A DNA stretch of 64,000 nucleotides, taken from positions 1 through 64,000 of the forward strand of contig CBDDBZ010000025.1 in NCBI GenBank assembly GCA_965225945.1, read 5' to 3'. The stretch is from Alphaproteobacteria bacterium. GTDB lineage: Bacteria; Pseudomonadota; Alphaproteobacteria; GCA-2731375. Each line of letters starts with the position of its first letter. The first letter of the stretch is position 1. Below are positions 2,994 through 23,484 of this stretch, piece after piece. The position numbers and the translations under genes were made by a program. The notes under the pieces were generated by a model. The model saw only the letters and a list, made by a program, of their open reading frames with translations, was not told where the DNA came from and did no database searches.

Positions 2994-4868
2994 TCAGGTG
3001 CGCGCCCGCGCGCCCGACGCCTGGGCGACGAGATCGTCGGGGATGTCGTCGAACGAGGCGTAGTTGAACGCGTACAGCCTGGCATAGAGGCCCTGGGCCT
3101 CGATCAGCGCCTCGTGGTTGCCGCTCTCGACGATCCGGCCCTCGTTGAGGACGACGATGCGGTCGGCGCCGCGCACGGTGGCGAGGCGGTGGGCGATCAC
3201 GATGCCGGTGCGCCCCTCCAGCAGGCGTGCCAGCGCGATCTGGATCTGGCGCTCGGTGTAGGAATCGATATTCGCGGTCGCTTCGTCGAGGATCAGGATC
3301 GGCGTGTCGGCGACCAGCGCGCGGGCGAAGCTCAGCAACTGCCGCTGGCCGAGCGAGAGGTTGCGCCCCTGCTGGTCGAGGACGGTGTCGTAGCCGTCGG
3401 CGAGCTGGACGATGAAATCATGCGCGCCGACCGCGCGGGCCGCGCGCCCGATGTCCTCGCGGGTCGCCTTGTCGGTGGAGAAGCGGATGTTGTCGAGCAC
3501 CGTGCCGGTGAACAGATAGGGGTCCTGGAGGACCATCGCGATGTGCCGCCCGAGCGCCGCCTTGGCGTATTCCCGGACGTCGTGCCCGTCGATCGAGATA
3601 CGTCCTTCCCAGACATCGTAGAACCGGTGGAGGAGGGCGGTGATGCTGGTCTTGCCGGAGCCCGTCGGACCCACCAGCGCCACCGTCTCGCCCGGCGCCA
3701 CCGAAAAGCTCACCTCGTGCAGCACCGGCTGGCCGGGGGCGTAGCCGAATGTGACGCAATCGAAATCGATCGCGCCCCGCACCCGCTTGGGAAACAGCGC
3801 GTCCGGCTTGTCGGTGATCGCCAACGCCACGTCGAGCACCTCGAAGATGCGCTGCCCCGACGCCATCGCGCGCTGCATGATGCTGTACTGGATGGTGAGC
3901 GAGCGGATCGGGTCGAAGAAGCGCTGGACGTAGAACAGGAAGGCGACCATCACCCCGATTTCGAGCGCGCTGTCGAGCACCAGCGAGCCGCCCAGCACCA
4001 CCACGATGGCGAGCGCCGCCCCGGTCAGGGTGTCGACCACCGGCACCATCGCCTGGGCGTATCTGGCCGCGCGCAGATGGGCGTCGAGGTTCTCGCCCGC
4101 CTTGTCGCCGTAAAGCAGGAAATTGACGTCCTCGCGGCGCATGCCCTGGACGGTGCGCACCGCGTGGATCGCCTCGGCCAGCGCGCCGTTGGCGATCGAG
4201 TTGGTCTCGCGCGCGCGGCGGAAGGCGATCTTCGCCCGCGGCAGCCAGACGATGCGGACCACCGCCAGCGTCGGCACCAGCACCAGGGTGAGCAGCCCGA
4301 GCTCCAGGTTGAGCGTCAGCATGATGACAACGATGCCCACCAGCAGCAGCAGATCGCCGAAGGCGGTGACCGAGTTTTCGAGGAATTCCTGCAGCGAGTT
4401 CACGTCGCCCTGCAGGCGGGACATCATCCGCCCGACCTCGGTCTTGTCCATGAAGGAGAGCGACACCTCCTGGAGATGGGCGAACATGGCGCGGCGGAGA
4501 TCGAAGATCACCCGCTCGCCGATATGGCCGACCAGGCGGTCCTGGAGGTAGCTGGCGGCGTAGCTGACCAGGATGACGACGCCGAACACGGCGGCGGTGA
4601 GCTGCAGATGCACGACGTCGCCGCCATCGGCGAGGATCGCCTCGTCGATCGCGTGGCGGATGACCAGCGGGATCAGGAGCTGGGCCGCGGTATAGACCAG
4701 CACCGCCCCGAGCGCGATCAGGAGCCAGCGCGTATAGGGCCGGACATAGGCCATGAAGCGGCTCGCCACGCGGCGGTCGTAGGCGGCGCCGAATATCTCC
4801 TCGTCGCGGCTGATCTGCGAGCCGACGACGGCGCGTGGCGGCCGGGCCGATCCGACGGCGGCGCTCAT
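2994..4868 (-). CDS. ABC exporter, fused permease/ATPase
   Basis: TM region, Walker A GPTGSGKT, LSLGQRQ, ILILDEAT. Confidence 0.93.
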   Translation of the reverse strand: MSAAVGSARPPRAVVGSQISRDEEIFGAAYDRRVASRFMAYVRPYTRWLLIALGAVLVYTAAQLLIPLVIRHAIDEAILADGGDVVHLQLTAAVFGVVILVSYAASYLQDRLVGHIGERVIFDLRRAMFAHLQEVSLSFMDKTEVGRMMSRLQGDVNSLQEFLENSVTAFGDLLLLVGIVVIMLTLNLELGLLTLVLVPTLAVVRIVWLPRAKIAFRRARETNSIANGALAEAIHAVRTVQGMRREDVNFLLYGDKAGENLDAHLRAARYAQAMVPVVDTLTGAALAIVVVLGGSLVLDSALEIGVMVAFLFYVQRFFDPIRSLTIQYSIMQRAMASGQRIFEVLDVALAITDKPDALFPKRVRGAIDFDCVTFGYAPGQPVLHEVSFSVAPGETVALVGPTGSGKTSITALLHRFYDVWEGRISIDGHDVREYAKAALGRHIAMVLQDPYLFTGTVLDNIRFSTDKATREDIGRAARAVGAHDFIVQLADGYDTVLDQQGRNLSLGQRQLLSFARALVADTPILILDEATANIDSYTERQIQIALARLLEGRTGIVIAHRLATVRGADRIVVLNEGRIVESGNHEALIEAQGLYARLYAFNYASFDDIPDDLVAQASGARART

Positions 4869-6980: not shown

Positions 6981-7556
6981 CCCGGATATCTCACGAGGCC
7001 ATTTTTATCGTTGGATTTACGATCTATTGGGCGGATCTGAGTGGCGGTGTGTCGAGGTTGTGTTTTCTGTTGGTCCAAAGTGGGCAGGGCCGCGTAGCTG
7101 GGTTCGGAAATGGATTGGCTTCGTAGCTTTTGGGTATGAGGGAAGTTTCGCCTGCTGGGACGTCTTGGCCTTTTTCGGTTGTCGCAGAAGGGTTGGGACT
7201 ATGGGGGTGCCAGAGCGGCGTGAGCCTTGAAGAACAGGGTTTTGCTGGGACAGGCGTCGGGCAGGGAGAGCTTGATGCGCCGCACGGAGTTGACGCCCCT
7301 GGCGCCGATCTTGAGCAGCTTGAGACGGATGGTCGAGGGAACGGCGTTGGCCAGGGCGGTATTTTTCAAGGCGACGCGGCGGATGCCGTCGATGAGGACA
7401 TAGGCGAAGGCGGCGAAGATCAGGCGCACCTGGTTGGCCTTGTAGGCGTGCGCGCTCATGCGGTCGGCGAACAGATCGAGTTGGCAGTCCTTGATACGGT
7501 TTTCCATGTCGCCGCGCGGGCAATAGATGTCCTCGTAGAGTTCCCCGGGCGGTAGA
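6981..7556 (-). mobile_element. IS1380-family 3' remnant (transposase C-terminus 7199-7556 plus right end)
   Basis: YCPRGDMENRIKDCQLDLFADRMS...ANQVRL...TIRLKLLKIGA; end CCCGGATATCTCAC at 6981. Confidence 0.85.
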
Positions 7557-7897
7557 CCCGGACTTCTCACGAGGCGTTTTGAGGCGCTGCATTTGAGAGT
7601 GATCGGGCTGATTTGAGTGTCGGCGTGGTTGGTCGGGCTTTGAGATGGATATTCTGGCCGGGATAGTTGGGCAGGCTTTGCGTATGATTGGTTATTTGGT
7701 GGGTTTCGGGCATGCGGGAGTCATCGCCGCCGTAGCGTTGCCCCCTTTTCCCTGTTGTGGTGGAGAGTTGCGATCATGGGGGCGCCAGGGCGGCGTGGGC
7801 CTTGAAGAAGAGGTCTTTGTAAGGGCAGGCATCGGGCAGGGAGAGCTTGATGCGTCGCACGGAGTTGATGACTTTGGCGCCGACCTTCAGAAGTTTC
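7557..7897 (-). mobile_element. Second IS1380-family 3' remnant
   Basis: End CCCGGACTTCTCAC at 7557; KLLKVGAKVINSVRRIKLSLPDACP...AHAALAPP paralogous to the adjacent remnant; cut by IS3. Confidence 0.8.
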
Positions 7898-7932
7898 TGT
7901 ATCGCACCCGGTTCCTTGGACACAAGTTTGTC

Positions 7933-8844
7933 TCATGCGGCGGGCCTGAGTGACATCGCGGTGTGCCACGCCTGACGAGCTTGAGCGGGGCTCAGGTAGC
8001 CGTTCTTCTCCACGATCCACTGGGCATTGTACTGTTCGACGAACCCGCGGACGGCGTTCCGCAGCTCCGCGATGTTGCGGTAGATGCGGCCATGGATGAT
8101 CTGTTCCTTGAGCGTGCGATTGAACCTCTCGGCGACGCCGTTGGTCTGGGGCTGTTCGACGAAGGCGTAGGACGGCTGGATGCCCCAGAACTTGATCTGG
8201 TTGGTGAAGTGGTCCGACAGATACTGGGAGCCGTGATCCATCCGCAAGGCCAGCCCCCGCGCCGCACCGGCGGAGGTCGAGGCATACAGCCTCGCAAGCC
8301 CCATGGAGATCGGCTGAAGGGCGGCGAAGCGGTCGCCTCGCTTGCACACATGCCAGCCGACGCACTCGGCGTTCCAATGCTCGATGGCGGTGAATATCCA
8401 GCCCCAGCCGTCGTCCACCGTGAACACCCGAACGCCGTCCGTGCCCCACATGAGGTTGGGGGCATGGGTGATGATCTCACCGACATGGGGATTTCCGCCA
8501 CGGCGGCGGCAGCGATGGGGCGAGAGCAGGTTGTTCTCGCGCATCACCCGGAGCACCCGCTTGCGGGAAACACGGATGCCACGACAGACCCGAAGCCGAG
8601 CCCAGACCTTGCGGTGTCCCTCGCCCTCCCAGGGGGATGCCTCCAGGTCGGCCTCGATGGCCACCAGCAGAGCCTCGTCCGAGATCGAGGGCTTCGGTCC
8701 CCGGCGCTTTGCTGGTGGGCGCTCAGCGGTGGCCTGCTGCCGGGATTTCATGGTGTAGAACGAGGAACGGGCAAAACCCCAGGCCGCACAGACCCGCTGG
8801 AGGCCGTAGGCCAAACCCGTGCCGGGAGAGGTGGCGGCACTCAT
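7933..8844 (-). CDS. IS3 transposase OrfB (rve integrase core)
   Basis: WGTDG, MDHGSQY, NGVAERFNRTLKE DDE motifs. Confidence 0.92.
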   Translation of the reverse strand: MSAATSPGTGLAYGLQRVCAAWGFARSSFYTMKSRQQATAERPPAKRRGPKPSISDEALLVAIEADLEASPWEGEGHRKVWARLRVCRGIRVSRKRVLRVMRENNLLSPHRCRRRGGNPHVGEIITHAPNLMWGTDGVRVFTVDDGWGWIFTAIEHWNAECVGWHVCKRGDRFAALQPISMGLARLYASTSAGAARGLALRMDHGSQYLSDHFTNQIKFWGIQPSYAFVEQPQTNGVAERFNRTLKEQIIHGRIYRNIAELRNAVRGFVEQYNAQWIVEKNGYLSPAQARQAWHTAMSLRPAA

Positions 8845-12702: not shown

Positions 12703-13683
12703 TCATGCCGCCGACGGCTCGGACATAGCTGCCGTCCCCTCTTGGCTAGGCGGGTCCAACTCAATTTCAGAAGACGGGGCCAGCGTTTCTTTCGGCTTCT
12801 CATTTTTGTACCTGATTACGCACTATTTTCAGCTAATTTGGGGGGCTGATGGAGAGGGGGTGAAGTGCGAGGGGTGCTCCGTTGCGACGAGGTGTCGTCC
12901 ATATCATCCTTTTGTCAGGTCCACCTCGTAGTCTGGCTCGCCCTCCGACATCACCTGTACCAGCTTACGCTTCGCTCTCCAAGCTGTGGTCTGAGTGACC
13001 CGAAGTCGCCGGGCCAGCTCGATGCTGGAGACGCGTTTATTCGACTTGATGATCAGATACATTATTCTGAACCAGAAAGTGAGCGGCAGATGGGTAGACT
13101 GGAAGATTGTGCCGGCGGTCAGCGACACTTGGTAGCGGCAGGCAGAGCACTGGTAAAGGCCGCGGTTGGTGATTTCGCTAAAGCGCCAGGCACCGCAGCG
13201 CGGGCAAGCGAAACCCTTTGGCCAGCGCAAAGCAAACAGGGCCGCCCGGCATCGCTTCTCGCTTCCGTACAACTCACGAAACCGCTGCTCACTGAGCCCT
13301 TTCTGAAACTGCACTTTGTTGAGTGGCATGCAGAATCCCCTGAAAAACCTCGGATTTCCACTGATTATACCACGATGAATCAGCTGAGGATCGTGCGTAA
13401 TCAGGTTTTTGTATGCGATGAAGCCCGACGCGCCTTTGCCTTTGGCACGACGCAGTGTGTACCCATGATTGCCGAGTTTGAACTTCGGGTCATTCTCAAA
13501 GCCCGCGAGAGCATTGACGATCTTCATCGCCACGGGATCTGGCTTGCTCGTGGCTTGTGAGGCAGCCCCCCGCTCCAGCCACTTTGCGAAGACCTCTTCG
13601 GCGAGCTCGTCACCGACAGATTTCCGAAGCGCGTTCAATTTTCTCACCAAACCTTTGGTGAGCCCGGATTCATCGATTGCCAT
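12703..13683 (-). pseudogene. Small basic hypothetical protein (paralogue of 736-1008) interrupted by an IS1595 derivative
   Basis: Removing 12811-13413 restores ...GFIAYKNEKPKETLAPSS...EPSAA-stop. Confidence 0.8.
12811..13405 (-). mobile_element. 595-bp internally deleted IS1595-family element
   Basis: IR CCTGATTACGCAC at both ends, 8-bp TSD TTTTTGTA; encodes only the Zn-ribbon/HTH part (12904-13329) of the transposase seen at 32438. Confidence 0.9.
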
Positions 13684-13888
13684 TTCTTAAACCTCTGATT
13701 TTCAGCCTCTTAATACTGTAGCGTGGCGTGGCTTTTGTACAACCGATTGCCATTGTTTATCAGCAGTTTACTGTTCGCTTTTCCCGTTGTCTAATTGTAA
13801 CTACCCAGGTACCCCGCTCTTGACCGCGAGAGGATGATGTAGGTGGTCGCCGGGGCCGGGTTTCCGCCGCCGCGTCGTTGATCGTCTC

Positions 13889-13917
13889 TTGACTCCATAG
13901 AATCGGGCGTCTATGGG
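13889..13917 (+). promoter_or_regulatory. Putative sigma-70 promoter of the MTase-transposase operon
   Basis: TTGACT-N17-TATGGG, overlapped by IR CCATAGA-N8-TCTATGG and two GANTC sites. Confidence 0.55.
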
Positions 13918-13945
13918 TTGCGCTCTCGTGTGACGGGAGCGGCGC

Positions 13946-14611
13946 GTGGAATATTTTGGGTCGAAGGCGACGAGCGGTCTGTGCCAGGCGCTGATTGCGC
14001 TGATGCCGCCGCACAGCGTTTACATCGAGAGCCACCTGGGGGGCGGTGCGCTGATGAAGCGCAAGCCAACGGGCGTGCGCTCGATCGGCATCGACCGCGA
14101 TGCGCAGGCGCTCGAGGCCTTTGCCTGTGACTACCCGGTCGAGTTGGTGCATGGCTGTGCCCATGCCTTTTTGGCCTCGTTCCCGTTTCTGGGCCCGGAG
14201 CTGGTCTACAGCGATCCCCCCTATCTGCACGCGACCCGCCGTTCGGCACGGCGCTATCGCTTCGACTACGAGGAGGTCGACCATGTCGCGCTCCTGGACC
14301 TGCTCAAGGATCTGCCCTGCCAGGTGATGGTCTCGGGCCATCCCTCGGCGCTCTATGACGAGATGCTGGCGGGCTGGCGCAGTCTGGCGCTGCAGGTGAC
14401 GACCCAGGCCCAGGTGCGGACCGAGGTCGTGTGGTTCAACTTCGCGCCCGACCGGGTGCATTGGGCGAGCTACGCAGGCCGGAACTTCACCGACCGCCAG
14501 CGCATCAAGCGTAAGGCGGCCAACTGGGGCCGGCGTTACAAGGCCTTGCCGGCGGGCGAACGCCTCGCGGTGCTGGCCGCCATGATGGCCGTCGATGCCG
14601 AGGACCCGTGA
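13946..14611 (+). CDS. Compact Dam/D12-class N6-adenine DNA methyltransferase
   Basis: YFGSK, IESHLGGGAL (SAM binding), VYSDPPY (catalytic), VMVSG, RTEVVWFNF. Confidence 0.88.
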   Translation: MEYFGSKATSGLCQALIALMPPHSVYIESHLGGGALMKRKPTGVRSIGIDRDAQALEAFACDYPVELVHGCAHAFLASFPFLGPELVYSDPPYLHATRRSARRYRFDYEEVDHVALLDLLKDLPCQVMVSGHPSALYDEMLAGWRSLALQVTTQAQVRTEVVWFNFAPDRVHWASYAGRNFTDRQRIKRKAANWGRRYKALPAGERLAVLAAMMAVDAEDP

Positions 14612-16146
14612 CGCTGTCGCGCTGGCACGAGGACCTCGCCGCCCATGACGAGGCCTTCGCGTGCCTGCAAGATCTTCTTGACCCCTCATCCTTCGCAATC
14701 ACAGTCGTCAAGGCCTTCCGGGAATGGGGCCAGGGGCTGTTGCGCCTGGCCACGGCGCTCGTCCGGGAGAATGCCGCGCTCGAGCGGGAGAACGCGACCC
14801 TGCGGGACCGCATCGCCGAGCTCGAGCGGAGCGCGGCGCTTGACAGCACCACCAGCAGCAAGCCGCCCGCCAGCGACGGCCTGCGCAAGAAGAGCGGAAC
14901 CCAGAGGCGCACCCGAAGCCAGCGCGGCAAGTCCGGCAGGCCAAGCGGCGGCCAGCCGGGCCACAAGGGAACGACGCTGGCGCGGACCGAGAGCCCGGAC
15001 CATGTTGTGGATCATGACCCCTCCGCCTGTTCGGGCTGCGGCGCACCGCTGTCGGACGCCGACCGTCACCGCGCGCCCGTCTGTCGACAGGTCTTCGATG
15101 TGCCCGAGCCACGCCCCCTGGAGGTCACCGAACACCGCGCCCATCGCTGCCTCTGCGGCGCCTGCGCCACCGTGACAGGAGCCGTCTTCCCGGACGGCGT
15201 GACCGCCCCGGTCCAGTACGGGCCACGCATCACCGCCTGGGTGAGCTACCTGCTGTACGCCCAGTTCGTTCCCGAGAAGCGCTTGGCCGAACTCATGAGC
15301 GACCTCTTCGCAGTGTCCATCTCCACAGCCACGATCACCGCCATGGGCCGGCGAATCGCCAGGCGCTTCGAGCCCTTCCTCGCCCATGTCGCAGACGTGA
15401 TCCGCACAGCGGTCCCGGTCAAGCACCTCGACGAAACCGGCCTGCGGATCGCCGCCCGTACCCGCTGGCTCCACGTGCTGTGCACCCCATTCCTGACCGT
15501 CCTGCGCATCGGCGCGGGACGCGGCGATGTCGAAAAGGACCTCGAAGGCATCCTCATCCATGACGATTACGCCGCCTACTTCACCCTCAAGGGCGTGCGC
15601 CACGGCGCCTGCAACGCCCATCACCTGCGCGAACTCCAGGCCCTGATCGACATCGAGAAGGAAGACTGGGCAAAGAGCATGCACCGCCTCCTTGAGCGCG
15701 CACACAGGGCTACCCGCTTCTCCCGTGAGAACGGCCGCGACGTGCCCGCCTCCCTGGTGGCCCGGATCTCGCGGGCCTGGGCCCGCATCCTCGACCACGC
15801 CATCGCCTTCCACGAGGCGCAGCCGCCGCTCCGGACCGGCAAGCGCGGACGAAAGAAACGCCGCATCGGTCATAACCTCGCGCTCCGCCTCCGCAAGCAC
15901 AAGGAGGGATGCCTGCGATTCCTCACCGACCCGCGCACGCCGTTTACGAACAATGAGGCCGAACGTGACCTCCGAATGGCCAAGCTGCGCCAGAAGATCT
16001 CCGGTGGCTTCCGCTCCGAGAGGGGTGCCTACAACTTCGCCAGAATGCGTGCCGTCATCGCCACCGCCCGAAAGCAAGGCTGGAACGTCCTCCAGACCCT
16101 GGTGCATCCCGATCCGATGCAACTAATCCCCCAACTGCGCCTCTGA
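14608..16146 (+). CDS. IS66 transposase (TnpC; single-ORF ISBst12-like organisation)
   Basis: Coiled coil, SSKPPASD, GGQPGHKG, Cys Zn finger, HLDETG, IHDDY, TNNEAERDLR. Confidence 0.93.
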   Translation: MTLSRWHEDLAAHDEAFACLQDLLDPSSFAITVVKAFREWGQGLLRLATALVRENAALERENATLRDRIAELERSAALDSTTSSKPPASDGLRKKSGTQRRTRSQRGKSGRPSGGQPGHKGTTLARTESPDHVVDHDPSACSGCGAPLSDADRHRAPVCRQVFDVPEPRPLEVTEHRAHRCLCGACATVTGAVFPDGVTAPVQYGPRITAWVSYLLYAQFVPEKRLAELMSDLFAVSISTATITAMGRRIARRFEPFLAHVADVIRTAVPVKHLDETGLRIAARTRWLHVLCTPFLTVLRIGAGRGDVEKDLEGILIHDDYAAYFTLKGVRHGACNAHHLRELQALIDIEKEDWAKSMHRLLERAHRATRFSRENGRDVPASLVARISRAWARILDHAIAFHEAQPPLRTGKRGRKKRRIGHNLALRLRKHKEGCLRFLTDPRTPFTNNEAERDLRMAKLRQKISGGFRSERGAYNFARMRAVIATARKQGWNVLQTLVHPDPMQLIPQLRL

Positions 16147-16613
16147 GAACACCGGCACCGCTACCAGCCCGGACCCCCACGATCCCTCACATACAAACGC
16201 TCGGGCCAATCAGACCTGGGTAGTTACCCTGCGACAGCAATCTCTCATTGAAGTCTTGGTCCCCGCCCTGCTCAAGAAACCAGTAGGTACTACGGACTAT
16301 GCATCGCACGGTGGCCACTGCGAGCAACCCCTTTTCAGGGTGGCGGACCCAAGTCAAAGGGCAAAAACCCCATAGATTCGTTCGCCCACTTCCGGTGTAC
16401 CTCCAGCTCTGGGCGTTACATTAGCGGGGCGCTAACATGGTGAGTCATGACCCAGCCCCGACATTCGTCGCGAAATCGGCAAACAGAATGGAGCGAATTT
16501 TTCGCGGATCGAATCAGTCACTCTTAAAATACCAATCACCGGAGAAAGAGCAGTTCTCGATACTTGGGCATCGGCCAAATTTTGTCATCTACCAGCCCTT
16601 CCAGTTTATCGAT

Positions 16614-17691
16614 CGTCCCTATCTGGTTAAAGCAGGATGGGCTCCGAATGTTCTTGATATGTTCTCCATAGAGGTGTAGGCTGATCGCATCGGCTGGAGC
16701 TTTTGGAGGACTATTCGATGAGCGGGATATTGGAGTTCCTCGAACGCCATGGATCGGAGGCGGACTGCATCGAGGCGCTGGCTCGGCTGCGCTGGCCGCA
16801 AGGCTACGTCTGCGCGCGTTGCGGCGAGAGGCGGAACTACCAATTGAAGACGCGGCCGCGGGTCTTCGAATGCGCCGGTTGCGGCCATCAGGAATCGGTG
16901 ACCGCGGGCACGGTCTTCCACCGCACCCGCACACCGTTGCGCAAATGGTTCCTGGCGGCGTGGTGGATGGGGCGCGACAAGCGCGGGGTCTCGGCGCTGT
17001 TTCTGTCGCGAGAGTTGAGCCTGCGCTACGACACCGCCTGGCTGATGGCCCACAAGCTGCGCCATGCCCTGACGGAGCGCCCGGAGTTCCCGCTGGAGGG
17101 CTTGGTCGAGGTCGACGAGAGCTATTACGGCGGGCGGGGCAAGCCGGAGAGCCGGGGGCGCGGGCTTTCCAACCCGAACAAGAGCCTGTTGGTGATGGCG
17201 GTCGAGAAGTGGCCGGTCGGGTCGGGCAAGGGCATCAAGGGGAGCGGCTTCGCCGCCGGCGCCGCGCGGCTCGCCATCCTGCCCGAGGCCACCGCCCGTG
17301 AGTTGGGCGACTTCGTGCGCGCCTCGGTGAAGCCGGGAAGCCGCCTCGACAGCGACGCTTTCAAGAGTTACGCCAAGCTTGGCGATACTTATCGCCACCA
17401 GCCCGTCGTTCAAGGCCAAGGCAAGAACGCCGAGCAGCTCATGCCGGTCGTCCATGTCCTGTTTTCCAACGTGAAGACGTGGCTCAACGGAACCTACCAC
17501 GGGGTGAGCGCCAAGCATTTGCCGCGCTACGTCCGGGAATGGAACTACCGCTTCAACCGGCGCAAACGCATCTTCGACCTTGCCGATTTCGTGTTGCACC
17601 GCGCCATGACCCGACCGACCATCACCTAAAGGGAACTGGTCGACGGTATACAATCGCAGGGAGCGCTGCCTGCCTTAACCGGATAGGGACG
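16614..17691 (+). mobile_element. IS1595-family element (transposase about 16717-17629)
   Basis: IR CGTCCCTATCYGGTTAARGCAGG, 8-bp TSD TTATCGAT; Zn ribbon, VEVDESY, YVREWNYRFNRR. Confidence 0.93.
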
Positions 17692-19363
17692 TTATCGATA
17701 GACGCTCTAACGTCGCCAAAATCGGCTTTACCTGCTCTAACGTCGCCAAAAAGCGGCTTTACCTGCTCCGCATACGCCTCGGCTCTCTGGCCAGCATCGC
17801 CGATGTTGTCGGCGGCGGATTTCGCTTCCATTAATCGCGGCAAGTCCTCACTCAGACTTTGTGTAAAATCTGTAATTGGGGTAACTTTAGCGACCACGCT
17901 TTGCGCCTGATTATTGAGCCCCATGTCACTGAGGTTGCGATAGGTCTCGCCGAGTTCGTTGAGGTGCTCATTGGCGGCAGGCAAGATAAACGTCCTGCTC
18001 ATTTCCTCCAACAGGTCGGCTTCGATACCGACCTTGTTCAAGTAATGTTCGATCAGGACTTCGTAACGGCTATGCAGTTCGTTTTCACTGAAAACGTGCT
18101 GGTTTTCAAATGCTTCTTTAGATTTCTCGGAAATCATAGCCTTAAGAGCGACGGCGGTGGTTTTGTTGTTCGATAGTCCCCGAGCCACAGCTTCCTTTTC
18201 CCATGCCTCCGAATAGCCATCGCCGTTGAAAACGATCCGCTCTATATCTTCCTTATACTCCTGTAGAACAGAGACAATATTGTTTTCTGTATTTGGGTTT
18301 TTTTGATTCCTGCTATCTACTTCTTTTTTGAAAGCCTGCAATTGGTTGGCAACTATCGTGTTCAGCACGGTCATTGGCGCTGCGGAATTTGCCGAGCCGC
18401 CAACAGCACGGAATTCGAACCTATTGTCCACAAATGGAAATGGAAAGGTCCGATTTCTGTCAGTTGGATCTTTTTCGATGGCGGCGATTTTGGTCAATTG
18501 AAGATCGATCATAGTCTTTTCTTGGCCAACACCTGAGGTCAGTCCTTTCGAACAGAACTCGGCTAAAACCTCTTCGAGAGACGATCCGGTGAAAATGGAG
18601 ATTATGGCAGGCGGGGCTTCATTGGCGCCCAGCCGGTGATCATTACCTTCACTGGCAATAGCGGCCCGCAGCAAGTCGTCGTGATCGTGGATCGCTTTGA
18701 TCACATTGATGAAGAAAGTCAGGAATTGCAGGTCCGAACCGGGATCGTTTCCCGGGGAGAACAGATTCTTGCCGTTGCTGGTGGCCAGGGACCAATTGTT
18801 GTGTTTTCCGTTTCCATTGAGTCCACCAAACGGCTTTTCATCAAACAAGATCCTGAATTTATGTTTGATCGCGATTTTTTCCATCAGGTCCATGATCAGC
18901 AGGTTATGATCAACAGCTACATTGGTTTCCTCGAACATCGGGGCACATTCGTACTGACCGGGGGCCACTTCATTGTGGCGGGTCACAATGGGAATGCCTA
19001 GCCTTAGGGCTTCAAACTCGAACTCCTTCATAAAATCCTGGACCCGCACCGGGATGGAACCGAAATAGTGATCGTCCATTTGCTGTCCCCTGGCGGATTC
19101 CCGGCCAAAGATGGTGCGGCCGGTAAGCAACATGTCGGGACGAGCATTAAAAAATTTCTCATCGACCAGGAAATATTCCTGCTCACAGCCGAGAGTGGAA
19201 AACACATGCTCCACCTCTTGATCGAAATAATGGCAGACCGCAGTAGCAGCAATATTCAGAGCATGGTTAGCCTTGAGCAAAGGTAACTACCCAGGTCTGA
19301 TTGGCCCGAGTGTTTGTATGTGAGGGATCGTGGGGGTCCGGGCTGGTAGCGGTGCCGGTGTTC

Positions 19364-20902
19364 TCAGAGGCGCAGTTGGGGGATTAGTTGCATCGGATCG
19401 GGATGCACCAGGGTCTGGAGGACGTTCCAGCCTTGCTTTCGGGCGGTGGCGATGACGGCACGCATTCTGGCGAAGTTGTAGGCACCCCTCTCGGAGCGGA
19501 AGCCACCGGAGATCTTCTGGCGCAGCTTGGCCATTCGGAGGTCACGTTCGGCCTCATTGTTCGTAAACGGCGTGCGCGGGTCGGTGAGGAATCGCAGGCA
19601 TCCCTCCTTGTGCTTGCGGAGGCGGAGCGCGAGGTTATGACCGATGCGGCGTTTCTTTCGTCCGCGCTTGCCGGTCCGGAGCGGCGGCTGCGCCTCGTGG
19701 AAGGCGATGGCGTGGTCGAGGATGCGGGCCCAGGCCCGCGAGATCCGGGCCACCAGGGAGGCGGGCACGTCGCGGCCGTTCTCACGGGAGAAGCGGGTAG
19801 CCCTGTGTGCGCGCTCAAGGAGGCGGTGCATGCTCTTTGCCCAGTCTTCCTTCTCGATGTCGATCAGGGCCTGGAGTTCGCGCAGGTGATGGGCGTTGCA
19901 GGCGCCGTGGCGCACGCCCTTGAGGGTGAAGTAGGCGGCGTAATCGTCATGGATGAGGATGCCTTCGAGGTCCTTTTCGACATCGCCGCGTCCCGCGCCG
20001 ATGCGCAGGACGGTCAGGAATGGGGTGCACAGCACGTGGAGCCAGCGGGTACGGGCGGCGATCCGCAGGCCGGTTTCGTCGAGGTGCTTGACCGGGACCG
20101 CTGTGCGGATCACGTCTGCGACATGGGCGAGGAAGGGCTCGAAGCGCCTGGCGATTCGCCGGCCCATGGCGGTGATCGTGGCTGTGGAGATGGACACTGC
20201 GAAGAGGTCGCTCATGAGTTCGGCCAAGCGCTTCTCGGGAACGAACTGGGCGTACAGCAGGTAGCTCACCCAGGCGGTGATGCGTGGCCCGTACTGGACC
20301 GGGGCGGTCACGCCGTCCGGGAAGACGGCTCCTGTCACGGTGGCGCAGGCGCCGCAGAGGCAGCGATGGGCGCGGTGTTCGGTGACCTCCAGGGGGCGTG
20401 GCTCGGGCACATCGAAGACCTGTCGACAGACGGGCGCGCGGTGACGGTCGGCGTCCGACAGCGGTGCGCCGCAGCCCGAACAGGCGGAGGGGTCATGATC
20501 CACAACATGGTCCGGGCTCTCGGTCCGCGCCAGCGTCGTTCCCTTGTGGCCCGGCTGGCCGCCGCTTGGCCTGCCGGACTTGCCGCGCTGGCTTCGGGTG
20601 CGCCTCTGGGTTCCGCTCTTCTTGCGCAGGCCGTCGCTGGCGGGCGGCTTGCTGCTGGTGGTGCTGTCAAGCGCCGCGCTCCGCTCGAGCTCGGCGATGC
20701 GGTCCCGCAGGGTCGCGTTCTCCCGCTCGAGCGCGGCATTCTCCCGGACGAGCGCCGTGGCCAGGCGCAACAGCCCCTGGCCCCATTCCCGGAAGGCCTT
20801 GACGACTGTGATTGCGAAGGATGAGGGGTCAAGAAGATCTTGCAGGCACGCGAAGGCCTCGTCATGGGCGGCGAGGTCCTCGTGCCAGCGCGACAGCGTC
20901 AC
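19364..20902 (-). CDS. IS66 transposase, copy 2
   Basis: Translation appears identical to 14608-16146. Confidence 0.93.
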   Translation of the reverse strand: MTLSRWHEDLAAHDEAFACLQDLLDPSSFAITVVKAFREWGQGLLRLATALVRENAALERENATLRDRIAELERSAALDSTTSSKPPASDGLRKKSGTQRRTRSQRGKSGRPSGGQPGHKGTTLARTESPDHVVDHDPSACSGCGAPLSDADRHRAPVCRQVFDVPEPRPLEVTEHRAHRCLCGACATVTGAVFPDGVTAPVQYGPRITAWVSYLLYAQFVPEKRLAELMSDLFAVSISTATITAMGRRIARRFEPFLAHVADVIRTAVPVKHLDETGLRIAARTRWLHVLCTPFLTVLRIGAGRGDVEKDLEGILIHDDYAAYFTLKGVRHGACNAHHLRELQALIDIEKEDWAKSMHRLLERAHRATRFSRENGRDVPASLVARISRAWARILDHAIAFHEAQPPLRTGKRGRKKRRIGHNLALRLRKHKEGCLRFLTDPRTPFTNNEAERDLRMAKLRQKISGGFRSERGAYNFARMRAVIATARKQGWNVLQTLVHPDPMQLIPQLRL

Positions 20903-21564
20903 GGGTCCTCGGCATCGACGGCCATCATGGCGGCCAGCACCGCGAGGCGTTCGCCCGCCGGCAAGGCCTTGTAACGCCGGCCCCAGTTGGCCGCCTTACG
21001 CTTGATGCGCTGGCGGTCGGTGAAGTTCCGGCCTGCGTAGCTCGCCCAATGCACCCGGTCGGGCGCGAAGTTGAACCACACGACCTCGGTCCGCACCTGG
21101 GCCTGGGTCGTCACCTGCAGCGCCAGACTGCGCCAGCCCGCCAGCATCTCGTCATAGAGCGCCGAGGGATGGCCCGAGACCATCACCTGGCAGGGCAGAT
21201 CCTTGAGCAGGTCCAGGAGCGCGACATGGTCGACCTCCTCGTAGTCGAAGCGATAGCGCCGTGCCGAACGGCGGGTCGCGTGCAGATAGGGGGGATCGCT
21301 GTAGACCAGCTCCGGGCCCAGAAACGGGAACGAGGCCAAAAAGGCATGGGCACAGCCATGCACCAACTCGACCGGGTAGTCACAGGCAAAGGCCTCGAGC
21401 GCCTGCGCATCGCGGTCGATGCCGATCGAGCGCACGCCCGTTGGCTTGCGCTTCATCAGCGCACCGCCCCCCAGGTGGCTCTCGATGTAAACGCTGTGCG
21501 GCGGCATCAGCGCAATCAGCGCCTGGCACAGACCGCTCGTCGCCTTCGACCCAAAATATTCCAC
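20899..21564 (-). CDS. Dam/D12-class adenine methyltransferase, copy 2
   Basis: Translation appears identical to 13946-14611. Confidence 0.88.
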   Translation of the reverse strand: MEYFGSKATSGLCQALIALMPPHSVYIESHLGGGALMKRKPTGVRSIGIDRDAQALEAFACDYPVELVHGCAHAFLASFPFLGPELVYSDPPYLHATRRSARRYRFDYEEVDHVALLDLLKDLPCQVMVSGHPSALYDEMLAGWRSLALQVTTQAQVRTEVVWFNFAPDRVHWASYAGRNFTDRQRIKRKAANWGRRYKALPAGERLAVLAAMMAVDAEDP

Positions 21565-22575
21565 GCGCCGCTCCCGTCACACGAGAGCGCAACCCATAGA
21601 CGCCCGATTCTATGGAGTCAAGAGACGATCAACGACGCGGCGGCGGAAACCCGGCCCCGGCGACCACCTACATCATCCTCTCGCGGTCAGGAGCGGGGTA
21701 CCTGGGTAGTTACAAGCAAAGGCGTCTTGTAATCCAGCGACTCCCCCGTGTAGGAAACAAAGACAGCCGGAATGTAGAGCGTCTTGCCATTCTCTGTTTC
21801 CAAAATGAAAACAGGCGAAGATGGGTCCCAGATAGAGTAGCTTCTCGCCATATGCGTAGACCGAAGCCCGCCGGATGGAAAACTAGACCCATCCGGTTCC
21901 TGCTTTACGAGTTGCGAAGCTGAAAGTCTTTCGATGCTCTTGGCTTCCAGGTCGATACTCGGCTTGAAAAATGCATCATGCTTTTCGGCAGTCGACCCCG
22001 TAAGCGGATGAAACCAATGTGTATAGTGCGTAACGCCTTTTCTCATCGCCCACATGATCAGGGCTTCGGCAATATTCTCGGCGGTCGAAAAATCCATTTG
22101 CTTTTGTTTCAAAATCACACCTTTAATTTTTCGTAGGTGGATTCTGTGACATATTCTTTGAGGTTGTTCAGGGAGAAGATGTTCTCACCGAATATCTCGG
22201 AAAACTTATGCCCCTCAGGTTTTGCCTGATCGTATCCACTGTTGAGATGGGTCAATTCATCGCCGGTTTGTTGCAGGTCTGACATAAGGTCGAACTCCTC
22301 CCTCGATATGCTTTATCCGAGCGCGCCAGCCTACGAATTACAACCCAGACGCCCGGCGTGATCGATTCGTCTTACCCGAGATTTCCATTGGCTCTCGTTC
22401 TAACCTTGCCTATCCGGTTATCACCCACACCCACTATATGTAGTGTGTCTCCTTGGACTGCAGGCAAGGGCCGGCGCAGGCGCATTGAGGAGGCGATCCG
22501 GCTAATTCTTGATTGTTCTGAAAACCGAACCGGAGTTTAATTCACGTCACGTACTTAACATCGGGGGACGAAACG

Positions 22576-22884
22576 GTGGCGACCAAGGGAAAAACGAAGA
22601 AACCCACGGCCAGACGGGAAGCTGCTGATGAAACGACATCGTCTGAGCGATTGACGGCACTAGTCGAAGAAAGCGACGCGCTGGCACGAATCGTTGCGAA
22701 GAACCCGTCCGCGCCTGTTAGTCTCCTGCGCGTTTTGAGTCGCAGCGAAGACGAAGCGACACGCAAGAACGTGATCCTCAATCCGTTTACTTCATATGAC
22801 GTATTGAGCGAACTTGAAAACCAGTTCACAGAGCTATTTGTGAATAATCCGGCACTCGAATCCTACAATTCAATGAAGCTCTGA
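22576..22884 (+). CDS. Small helical-repeat (leucine-rich-variant-like) protein, possibly truncated
   Basis: Repeated VAKNPSAP / VILNPFTS / VNNPAL units; RBS GGGGGA. Confidence 0.5.
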   Translation: MATKGKTKKPTARREAADETTSSERLTALVEESDALARIVAKNPSAPVSLLRVLSRSEDEATRKNVILNPFTSYDVLSELENQFTELFVNNPALESYNSMKL

Positions 22885-23484
22885 TTTCCTGGAATATTCC
22901 ATCGGTGTCGTTCACCTCCGATTTCAGATAAATTTCAATGAAGTGACGGTCCTTTATGCAACGTGGCGTTTTGCCAAATCCGACTCAATGATTAGGATTT
23001 CCACCACGCTAAAGTGTCGCCTAAAAGGCGCTACAATGCCGTCCGAGTCCCTGCTCGGCATCGCCGGAGATATCTCCGCTTCGACCTGCACCGAGCTTTA
23101 CTCAGGAAAATGGGTGCACACTACATATAGTGGGTGTGGGTGATAACCGGATAGGCAAGGTTCTAACGTCCATACTGTACAGATGACAGTTGGGCGGCAA
23201 TCGCCGGAAGCATTTGACGACATTCTCCGACACGAAAGGCCTGTAAGCCGAAGATCCCCATGTGGAACCCTCCCAGCAGCTTGAATATGACTCGAAACCG
23301 TCCGAGAGGCAAGGGCGTTGGCCTCGCCTCGAACTGAGTTATGAAATTTAACCGACATTCCCCGGATGACCACCGATTCTGGCCATCAGAGTAGCCACTT
23401 TGGCTTTCCATGGCAATTTGGAGGTCGCTGCGCGTAGGTAGAGCACTCCGCCTACCTCCGGGAACGGCACGAAGGGCGCGCGCT

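Follow-up and report, generated by a model that had tools for sequence, protein, structure and literature searches.

A methylase cassette with a conserved promoter repeat precedes the transposases of several insertion sequence families

An insertion sequence (IS) is usually described as a transposase between two ends. What, then, is a gene for a compact Dam-like DNA methylase doing between the ends of an IS66-family element, directly ahead of its transposase? The element in question lies in a 64,000-nt stretch of alphaproteobacterial DNA (contig CBDDBZ010000025.1, positions 1-64,000, forward strand), called the window here, to which all plain coordinates refer; the source genome comprises 6.27 Mb in 39 contigs, with a G+C content of ~68%. 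We find that the methylase gene and the region in front of it form a cassette that is built into at least three IS families, inside the terminal repeats and always upstream of, and on the same strand as, the transposase. Both IS that carry extra genes and orphan methylases of mobile DNA are known already, and the element is a variant of each; the presence of the cassette before unrelated transposases suggests that it is a helper module of jumping genes not described so far. Full-text literature searches, whose scope does not extend to ISfinder, REBASE, and paper supplements, turned up no account of a methylase cassette borne by an IS.

A preliminary description of the locus, made from the letters alone, had proposed a unit of 2431 bp in which inverted ends enclose a methylase gene and an IS66 transposase gene. 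The open reading frames (ORFs) and the repeat search agree with this (Table 1), the GTG start of the transposase overlapping the TGA stop of the methylase in a shared GTGA. A second copy with only two non-coding differences had also been reported, and blastn aligned the two copies with 2 mismatches and 0 gaps; by eye the mismatches fall at 13820 (T/C) and 16199 (G/A), both non-coding. The copies are inverted relative to each other, with repeat arms of 2434 nt at 13795-16228 and 19282-21715. Copy 2 does interrupt a type III glutamine synthetase gene, as claimed, separating GSIII_N (21690-22118, minus strand) from Gln-synt_C and the C-terminal domain (17625-19280, minus strand), and the near-perfect target duplication ascribed to it was recovered at 7 of 8 positions. 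Copy 1 is without a target duplication (0/8).

"Two copies" proved right for the window and wrong for the genome, which has 16: 14 are full-length, one matches from base 5, and one is split by another insertion. All are 99.9-100% identical, with both genes intact or nearly so in each. Perfect 8-bp duplications flank nine of the 14 full-length copies and the split copy as well; among the remaining copies, two have a 7/8 duplication, one has 6/8, and two have none. The insertion targets are AT-rich, against the high G+C content of the genome. That the methylase moves inside the element is borne out by its place within the inverted repeats and its presence in 16/16 genome copies. A search of the two congeners and of 18 genomes of the same family did not find the element; one genome of another family in the same class holds four copies with 99-100% protein identity. 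Near-identical multiple copies together with patchy relatives indicate a recent horizontal arrival followed by a transposition burst. The element belongs to the single-transposase (ISBst12-like) kind of IS66-family insertion sequences, and it is active and has expanded recently. We note that two copies of the source genome (C33:300329-302759 and C37:248802-251232) have identical 12-nt flanks on both sides, a sign of a duplication of the region or in the assembly and not of two independent insertions.

The assignment to IS66 was sustained. The transposase scores 290.7 bits against NF033517 (cutoff 180) and 141.8 bits against PF03050 (cutoff 23.1), DUF6444 matches too, and the element has terminal inverted repeats (GTAACTACCCAGGT) and 8-bp duplications; IS66 ends typically start with GTAA. 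In the classical IS66 group, tnpA and tnpB stand upstream of tnpC, and the methylase had been suggested to take their position. Between the ends here there are only the methylase gene and tnpC, an arrangement like that of the single-transposase ISBst12-type group. Single-ORF IS66 elements have the most closely related transposases, and those examined have neither a methylase gene nor tnpA/tnpB; we therefore take the methylase to be an addition to an ISBst12-type element and not a replacement of tnpA/tnpB, and the earlier suggestion falls. A second IS66 family of ~25 copies coexists with the methylase-bearing one in the source genome. Its transposase is 53% identical and encoded by a single ORF, and in an example (G000:C37:87709-89061, equivalent to L096:2114-3574) nothing recognisable, and no methylase gene, lies upstream. 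Plasmid IS66 relatives, including elements annotated ISGst1 and ISGka4, have transposase identities of at most 48%. In a sample of 300 genomes of the class, no methylase-less transposase relative of at least 65% identity was found; the relatives in these genomes are only 47-55% identical, all without a methylase.

To what extent the methylase travels apart from this transposase can be read from the loci of its homologs: the best 80 loci from species-representative genomes (34 genomes of several phyla, 1.24 Mb of sequence in total) and the best 80 metagenome loci, 75 of them with room downstream and 78 with enough upstream sequence. A transposase lies directly downstream on the same strand in 77/80 genome loci, and directly downstream in 69 of the 75 metagenome loci with room. 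The synteny seen in the window recurs across genomes, with IS66 downstream in 56/80 genome and 67/80 metagenome loci. The downstream gene is IS4/ISAs1-like in 13 genome loci and 0 metagenome loci, IS701 in 6 and 2, IS630 in 1 (L047) and 0, and IS1634 in 1 (L084) and 0; it is absent or unclassified in 3 and 6, and there is no room for one in 0 and 5 (each out of 80). Two of the unclassified metagenome loci were examined: one has an ISKra4 transposase and the other an ATP-binding cassette (ABC)-transporter binding protein. The 56 IS66 loci of the genome set fall into lineages a, b, and c (34, 17, and 5 loci); the transposases of IS66b and IS66c are only 28-35% identical to that of the window, and between IS66a and IS66b the methylases are 72% identical and the transposases ~29%.

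The cassette can be delimited at the DNA level. Window positions 13873-14629 are 83% identical to positions 3928-4687 of an IS701-type element (L055), and the identity is confined to that stretch. Limits of the other IS types were set by comparing copies inside one genome. An element of the IS4-like type is 2143 bp long, has CAGCAGTTCTCATTTTG at its ends, and makes 9-bp duplications, as judged from 11 copies. For the IS701 type, 5 copies in 2 genomes gave a length of ~2775 bp, CTCGACTTTGTACATTT ends, and CTNAG duplications; IS66b measures 2257 bp, has GTAACTACTC ends, and makes 8-bp duplications. In all three the methylase lies inside the terminal repeats. The L055-type transposase reaches 307.4 bits against NF049999 (cutoff 170), and repeats and duplications of the IS701 kind enclose the methylase. 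The transposase of the IS4-like type (L078) scores 27.4 bits against PF01609 (cutoff 23), 30 against PF13808 (32.3), and 21.6 against the NCBIfam IS4 model (152); by its inverted repeats and the 9-bp duplications in 11 copies, this element is a real IS. At a further locus (L212), a 26-nt inverted repeat pair encloses the methylase and an ISKra4 transposase, and an IS66-type left end, GTAACTACTCAC, persists between the ISKra4 end and the cassette. This remnant suggests a route by which a methylase-IS66 element nested into another IS and the IS66 transposase was then lost.

Trees of the two genes bear on movement of the cassette between IS families. In the methylase tree (55 rows, with duplicates merged and without 9/80 loci whose matches were truncated or interrupted), the IS-borne enzymes form one clade (100/100), into which the long-branched outgroup representative P0144 also falls. 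The IS701-borne enzymes are nested among those of IS66a (100/99), and the IS4-like-borne ones sit with those of IS66b and IS66c. In the transposase tree, built with FastTree and disregarding the mis-framed row L062 (21 stops), methylase-less lineages fall between the IS66 lineages that bear the methylase: IS66a clusters with IS66 elements that have no methylase (support 81), and IS66b/c cluster with ISGst1, likewise methylase-less (support 98).

IS630 and IS1634 were considered as further carriers and set aside, being represented by single loci (L047 and L084) whose genome copies share the cassette only; these loci may be later insertions beside a truncated element. In the three genomes concerned (loci L046/L047, L073/L084/L086/L094, and L058-L060), only the cassette block is common, ~800-1600 bp at 90-98% identity, and the sequence after it varies: IS630, IS1634, truncated IS66, or ordinary genes. 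L047 retains an IS66a-like left end, TTAACTGCCCAGGT. The IS701-type element L055 has a stretch of ~520 bp ahead of the cassette, and in this stretch lies a divergent ORF (3472-3780, minus strand) that weakly matches DUF3024 at E 3e-4, below the cutoff; it is possibly a second captured gene.

What kind of enzyme does the cassette encode? A profile of 45 family members matches DpnM, E. coli Dam, and T4 Dam in two separate segments: profile positions 2-68 align with DpnM 16-80 and positions 82-159 with DpnM 184-266, so that DpnM 81-183 is skipped. The AF2 (AlphaFold) model of the methylase is confident (predicted local distance difference test score, 92.2; predicted TM score, 0.86). Its residues 1-167 superpose on E. 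coli Dam (2g1p_B) with a Z score of 17.7 and a root mean square deviation of 2.3 A, 149 residues being aligned across Dam 8-270; Z is 17.6 for T4 Dam, 16.8 for DpnM, and at most 13.9 for other methyltransferases, about 3 Z below the Dam-type enzymes, which are also the top Foldseek matches. Both the profile and the structural alignment therefore indicate that the alpha-class target recognition domain (~100 residues) is missing, as the preliminary description had surmised. Its placement of DPPY at residues 90-93 was confirmed in the alignment; motif I reads HLGGGA. Residues G5, H23, G32, D90, P91, P92, and H113 are invariant in the 45 sequences, G34 of HLGGGA is conserved along with G32 and D90-P92, and Y93 is present in at least 90%. 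The basic stretch RQRIKRKAANW, previously regarded as a tail added to this protein, is present and is not a specific addition: it belongs to a family-wide C-terminal hairpin of long, basic helices (181-199 and 203-219) that carry a conserved RxRIKRKAxxW. The methylase is under purifying selection, with ratios of nonsynonymous to synonymous substitution (dN/dS) of 0.11-0.29 in all 13 computable pairs, including pairs across IS families; a 14th pair is saturated. With its catalytic residues invariant as well, we take it to be a maintained enzyme.

These data bear on a minor alternative, that the ORF is an inert, decaying hitchhiker. Scores under the curated family cutoffs and the truncated or frameshifted state of some loci fit that idea, which can hardly be right given that selection and conservation already contradict it, that the fold is confidently predicted, and that the gene was kept after transfer into other IS families. 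Guidance of the methylase by the transposase, which had been offered earlier, is likewise unlikely, because homologs 68-90% identical to it precede IS701, IS4/ISAs1-like, and ISKra4 transposases as well as IS66 transposases of 28-35% identity.

The region ahead of the methylase gene is conserved as well. The motif TTGAC-N2-(C)ATAG-N10-CTATG stands upstream of the methylase in all element types; in its strict form, with fixed spacing, it is present in 34 of 45 non-redundant upstream regions and in 65 of the 78 metagenome loci. Throughout the 1.24 Mb of the 80 genome loci the strict motif has 65 matches on both strands, essentially at this position only, and the sequence between the half-sites is freely variable. 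A promoter scan calls the corresponding block of a relative, L068 (TTGACA-17-TATGCT, 10/12). The left half-site plays no part in a sigma-70 promoter, and we therefore read the repeat as a control site of the cassette; the methylase would be its likeliest ligand, because it is the sole protein common to all these elements. A single homodimer prediction for the methylase (score 0.28, mark 0.42) weighs neither for nor against such binding. The half-sites were also considered as common methylation or binding sites at the IS ends, an idea that we rejected: elsewhere in the element there is one CTATG, at 14353, neither half-site occurs at the IS ends, and no motif common to the ends of the IS66, IS701, and IS4-like types was visible by eye. 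A leader hairpin (Table 1) was rejected as a conserved RNA, with a z score of -0.27 against shuffles, covariation in 1 of 12 pairs, and stems that shift register between relatives.

Could both genes be read from this promoter? The GTGA overlap of stop and start codons is found in IS66a and in the unrelated IS4-like element, and no separate promoter was seen for the transposase. Eight runs labelled as RNA, from three studies, contain 81-98% of the element's sampled words. Four such runs were examined; contigs span the element end to end in three of them and stop at the element ends with differing loose ends. Single contigs running from 14482 or 14503 to 16227 cross the gene junction at 14608, and the flanks of copy 1 are without depth.

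The best overall explanation, to which we assign a probability of roughly 45%, is an operon of methylase and transposase in which the methylase serves the element, the repeat controls both genes, methylation is protective, and the cassette spreads by nesting. Both proteins would be made from one transcript starting at the cassette promoter. CATAG-N10-CTATG, which spans the promoter spacer and the -10 hexamer, would be the control site that the methylase binds or methylates; on arrival in a new cell the site would be unmethylated and unoccupied, allowing a burst of both genes and then shutdown. The enzyme, with an ancestry among plasmid or phage genes, would probably methylate adenines at short or degenerate sites and so could protect the DNA carrying the element from restriction during passage between hosts. 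The cassette would have reached other IS by nesting of a methylase-IS66 element and later loss of the IS66 transposase.

Several points weigh against this explanation. In 11 of the 45 upstream regions, one or two bases deviate from the strict motif; the promoter scan did not call the block in the window, where the -10 hexamer TATGGG is poor and its final T is missing; and the repeat is not evident upstream of the plasmid homologs L014 and L015 or of the P2-like phage homologs. Part of the right half-site can be put down to the -10 hexamer, and a factor other than the methylase could bind the repeat. The contigs that cross the gene junction cannot prove a transcript, and DNA carry-over is possible; they are only a weak hint of co-transcription. 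The methylase, whose N6-methyladenine (m6A) activity on DNA and specificity are putative, scores below the curated cutoffs of PF02086 (13.1 bits, cutoff 22; E 0.082) and TIGR00571 (24.2 bits, cutoff 114.85; E 2e-5). Of the 120 close homologs listed, 2 have a precomputed PF02086 assignment, and 42-82% of the members of the nearest Atlas clusters carry this domain. An IS benefits only indirectly from protecting its carrier DNA, and the fixed position and orientation of the cassette may follow from the manner of its capture.

A stronger form of the idea would make the element its own epigenetic entry switch. The methylase, devoid of a recognition domain, would methylate or occupy its own promoter repeat, including the -10 adenine, so that a naive cell would experience a burst and then silencing; any IS family could adopt such a device, as several would have done, and it would also mask the carrier DNA from restriction. 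We consider this doubtful.

Alternatively, the methylase may be pure cargo, an anti-restriction or establishment passenger without control over the transposase, its upstream position a by-product of capture. The wider family bears on this idea. At E <= 1e-3, one database holds 3793 similar proteins, the best 120 of them 71-99% identical, and a representative library holds 5554 cluster representatives. Stand-alone relatives of 31-55% identity occur on conjugative plasmids and P2-like phage contigs. Plasmid homologs number 189 records, with 134 of the plasmids conjugative; identity is 45-55% for the 30 best and <60% in all 189, and on three plasmids inspected the homolog lies among transfer, partition, or establishment-type genes. 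Viral-contig homologs are 31-51% identical, and on one contig inspected the gene lies between a P2 gpA-like nickase gene and portal and terminase genes. Loss of the recognition domain fits low specificity, the Hia5 enzymes, with a divergent domain, being described as non-specific in the available text of PMC3299994, and the IS66 left end before the cassette in L212 shows capture by nesting. What speaks against cargo is that the cassette was always captured with its promoter and repeat and reads into the transposase at nearly all loci, that the GTGA overlap recurs in two unrelated IS families, and that the transposase has no visible promoter of its own. On balance we find a mere passenger rather unlikely.

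Two side observations concern the wider family. Upstream of the methylase gene, the P2-like phage homologs (L098-L121) have a conserved block of another kind, which contains repeated ..GTGCTGG / ..GTGCTGCAGG units and has a TGCTGCAGG tail in common with the plasmid homolog L013. In the database protein P0127, the C-terminal end of an IS66 transposase follows the N-terminal two thirds of the methylase; this protein is probably a deletion derivative of a methylase-IS66 element.

A pure epigenetic switch, distinctly unlikely in our judgment, would have only the element's own promoter matter, for example through the -10 adenine in CTATG, with genome-wide methylation irrelevant and transposase made only from unmethylated or hemimethylated copies, a built-in version of the Dam control known for IS10 and IS50. 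The conserved, A-containing half-sites do overlap the -10 hexamer and spacer and are otherwise rare in the element, and the selection on catalytic motifs would be needless for a mere repressor. However, plasmid and phage relatives lack a transposase and yet some carry the repeat (two copies precede a Xanthomonas plasmid homolog, and one precedes a viral-contig homolog), the IS ends are free of half-sites, and such specificity is not expected of an enzyme without a recognition domain.

It is also conceivable, if improbable, that the methylase is kept for the bacterium, for epigenetic control or for masking from its own or incoming restriction, with the IS as a vehicle. Purifying selection, the many copies per genome, and solo or truncated cassettes that persist beside ordinary genes (L060, L091, L203) are compatible with a host function, but a single copy would be enough for one, the distribution among close relatives is patchy (0/18 same-family genomes), and near-identical, gene-disrupting copies such as that in the glutamine synthetase gene point to recent selfish spread.

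Several further features lie around the element. Copy 1 sits between two IS1595-type fragments. The piece at 12904-13683 (minus strand) has a 259-amino-acid (aa) ORF with only the IS1595 zinc ribbon, and the element at 16614-17691, bounded by 32-nt inverted repeats (16614-16645 and 17660-17691), encodes a 308-aa ISXO2-like transposase and cuts into the glutamine synthetase gene at its 3' end. The split glutamine synthetase gene has a G+C content of 47-49% at about 18000-19000 and 22000-23000, against 60-72% in the rest of the window, which suggests a foreign island struck by several IS. At 22396-23168, a pair of 52-nt inverted repeats, 96% complementary, encloses 669 nt and could be a small non-autonomous element or an insertion resembling a miniature inverted-repeat transposable element (MITE). 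Positions 7001-8000 have a strong local GC skew of +0.28 and an AT skew of -0.23; adjoining them is a 303-aa ORF (7933-8844, minus strand) that by eye resembles an IS3-type integrase-fold transposase. A scan of the window found no Rfam family at the gathering score.

Table 1. Features of the methylase-bearing element in the window
Feature	Position	Strand	Basis
IS copy 1, 2431 bp, methylase and IS66 transposase between inverted ends	13797..16227	+	ORF list, repeat search, blastn
Left terminal inverted repeat GTAACTACCCAGGT	13797..13810	+	repeat search
Right terminal inverted repeat, reverse complement of the left one	16214..16227	+	repeat search
Portable methylase cassette, ~760 bp: promoter, 5' leader, ORF, and ~18 nt of the IS66 transposase start	13873..14629	+	
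Promoter-like block with inverted repeat: TTGACT (13889-13894), 17-nt spacer, TATGGG (13912-13917)	13889..13917	+	
Half-sites CATAG and CTATG	13896-13900, 13911-13915	+	
9-bp hairpin in 5' leader, including GGGAG ribosome-binding site (13935-13939); weakly supported	13921..13941	+	prediction
Methylase ORF, 221 aa, Dam-fold N6-adenine methylase without target recognition domain	13946..14611	+	
Transposase ORF, 512 aa, IS66 family, DUF6444 N-terminal part and DDE_Tnp_IS66	14608..16146	+	
IS copy 2, inserted in type III glutamine synthetase gene	19283..21713	-	
Copy 2 methylase ORF	20899..21564	-	
Copy 2 transposase ORF	19364..20902	-	
Copy 2 target duplication, first: gagcaaag	19275..19282		
Copy 2 target duplication, second: aagcaaag (7/8 identical)	21714..21721		

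The significance of these elements lies in the recruitment of one conserved methylase cassette, with its control region, by at least three transposase families, and in its multi-copy presence in many uncultured bacteria, which belong to several phyla. Should the enzyme be active, the elements would rewrite the methylome of each host that they enter, and carriage of a methylase may explain how some IS cross phylum boundaries in restriction-rich communities. If the promoter repeat is its target, this would be, to our knowledge, the first transposon family with its own methylation-based control of transposition, and if the repeat acts as a switch upon entry, a portable counterpart of the host Dam control of IS10 and IS50. 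A compact Dam-fold enzyme without a recognition domain may also serve as a small, possibly low-specificity m6A tool; Hia5 and M.EcoGII are in use for this purpose.

How, finally, does the element compare with known systems? With the ISBst12-type IS66 elements (ISGst1 and ISGka4 by plasmid annotation) it shares DDE_Tnp_IS66 with DUF6444, GTAA ends, 8-bp duplications, and the absence of tnpA/tnpB; it differs in having, between the left end and the transposase, a further gene for a methylase that reads in the same direction and has its own promoter, and the transposases of its nearest methylase-less relatives are only 38-55% identical. IS with passenger genes are termed tIS in ISfinder usage, and like these the element is IS-sized and has a gene beyond the needs of transposition. 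Unlike a tIS, it has a passenger cassette that several IS families share, regulatory region included, and that stands ahead of the transposase as in an operon. In IS10/Tn10 and IS50/Tn5, host Dam methylation at GATC sites of the transposase promoter and ends controls transposition. The idea that adenine methylation ties transposition to the methylation state of the element would be the same here, whereas the element brings its own methylase and the methylation site is putative.

Among methylases, the stand-alone adenine enzymes of plasmids and P2-like phages belong to the same family (31-55% identity) and have the same length and C-terminal helices, and at least two carry CATAG-N10-CTATG upstream; they have no adjoining transposase and, except for the long-branched P0144, lie outside the IS-borne clade. 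The alpha-class D12 enzymes (E. coli Dam, T4 Dam, and DpnM/M1.DpnII) share the catalytic Rossmann core, motif I, and DPPY; the IS methylase is without their ~100-residue recognition domain and has an added two-helix basic hairpin, with 221 aa against 259-298 aa in the PDB chains of Dam, T4 Dam, and DpnM. Also comparable are Hia5, Hin1523, and Nme1821, which the available text of PMC3299994 presents as non-specific Dam-like m6A methylases of Mu-like prophages and as enzymes proposed to shield element DNA from many restriction enzymes. Compared by that description only, they are likewise Dam-like, borne by mobile elements, and aberrant in the recognition region; they differ in that they are 281-aa products of phage rather than IS genes and keep a divergent recognition region (~80-170) that the IS-borne methylase lacks (PMC3299994, as far as its available text goes).

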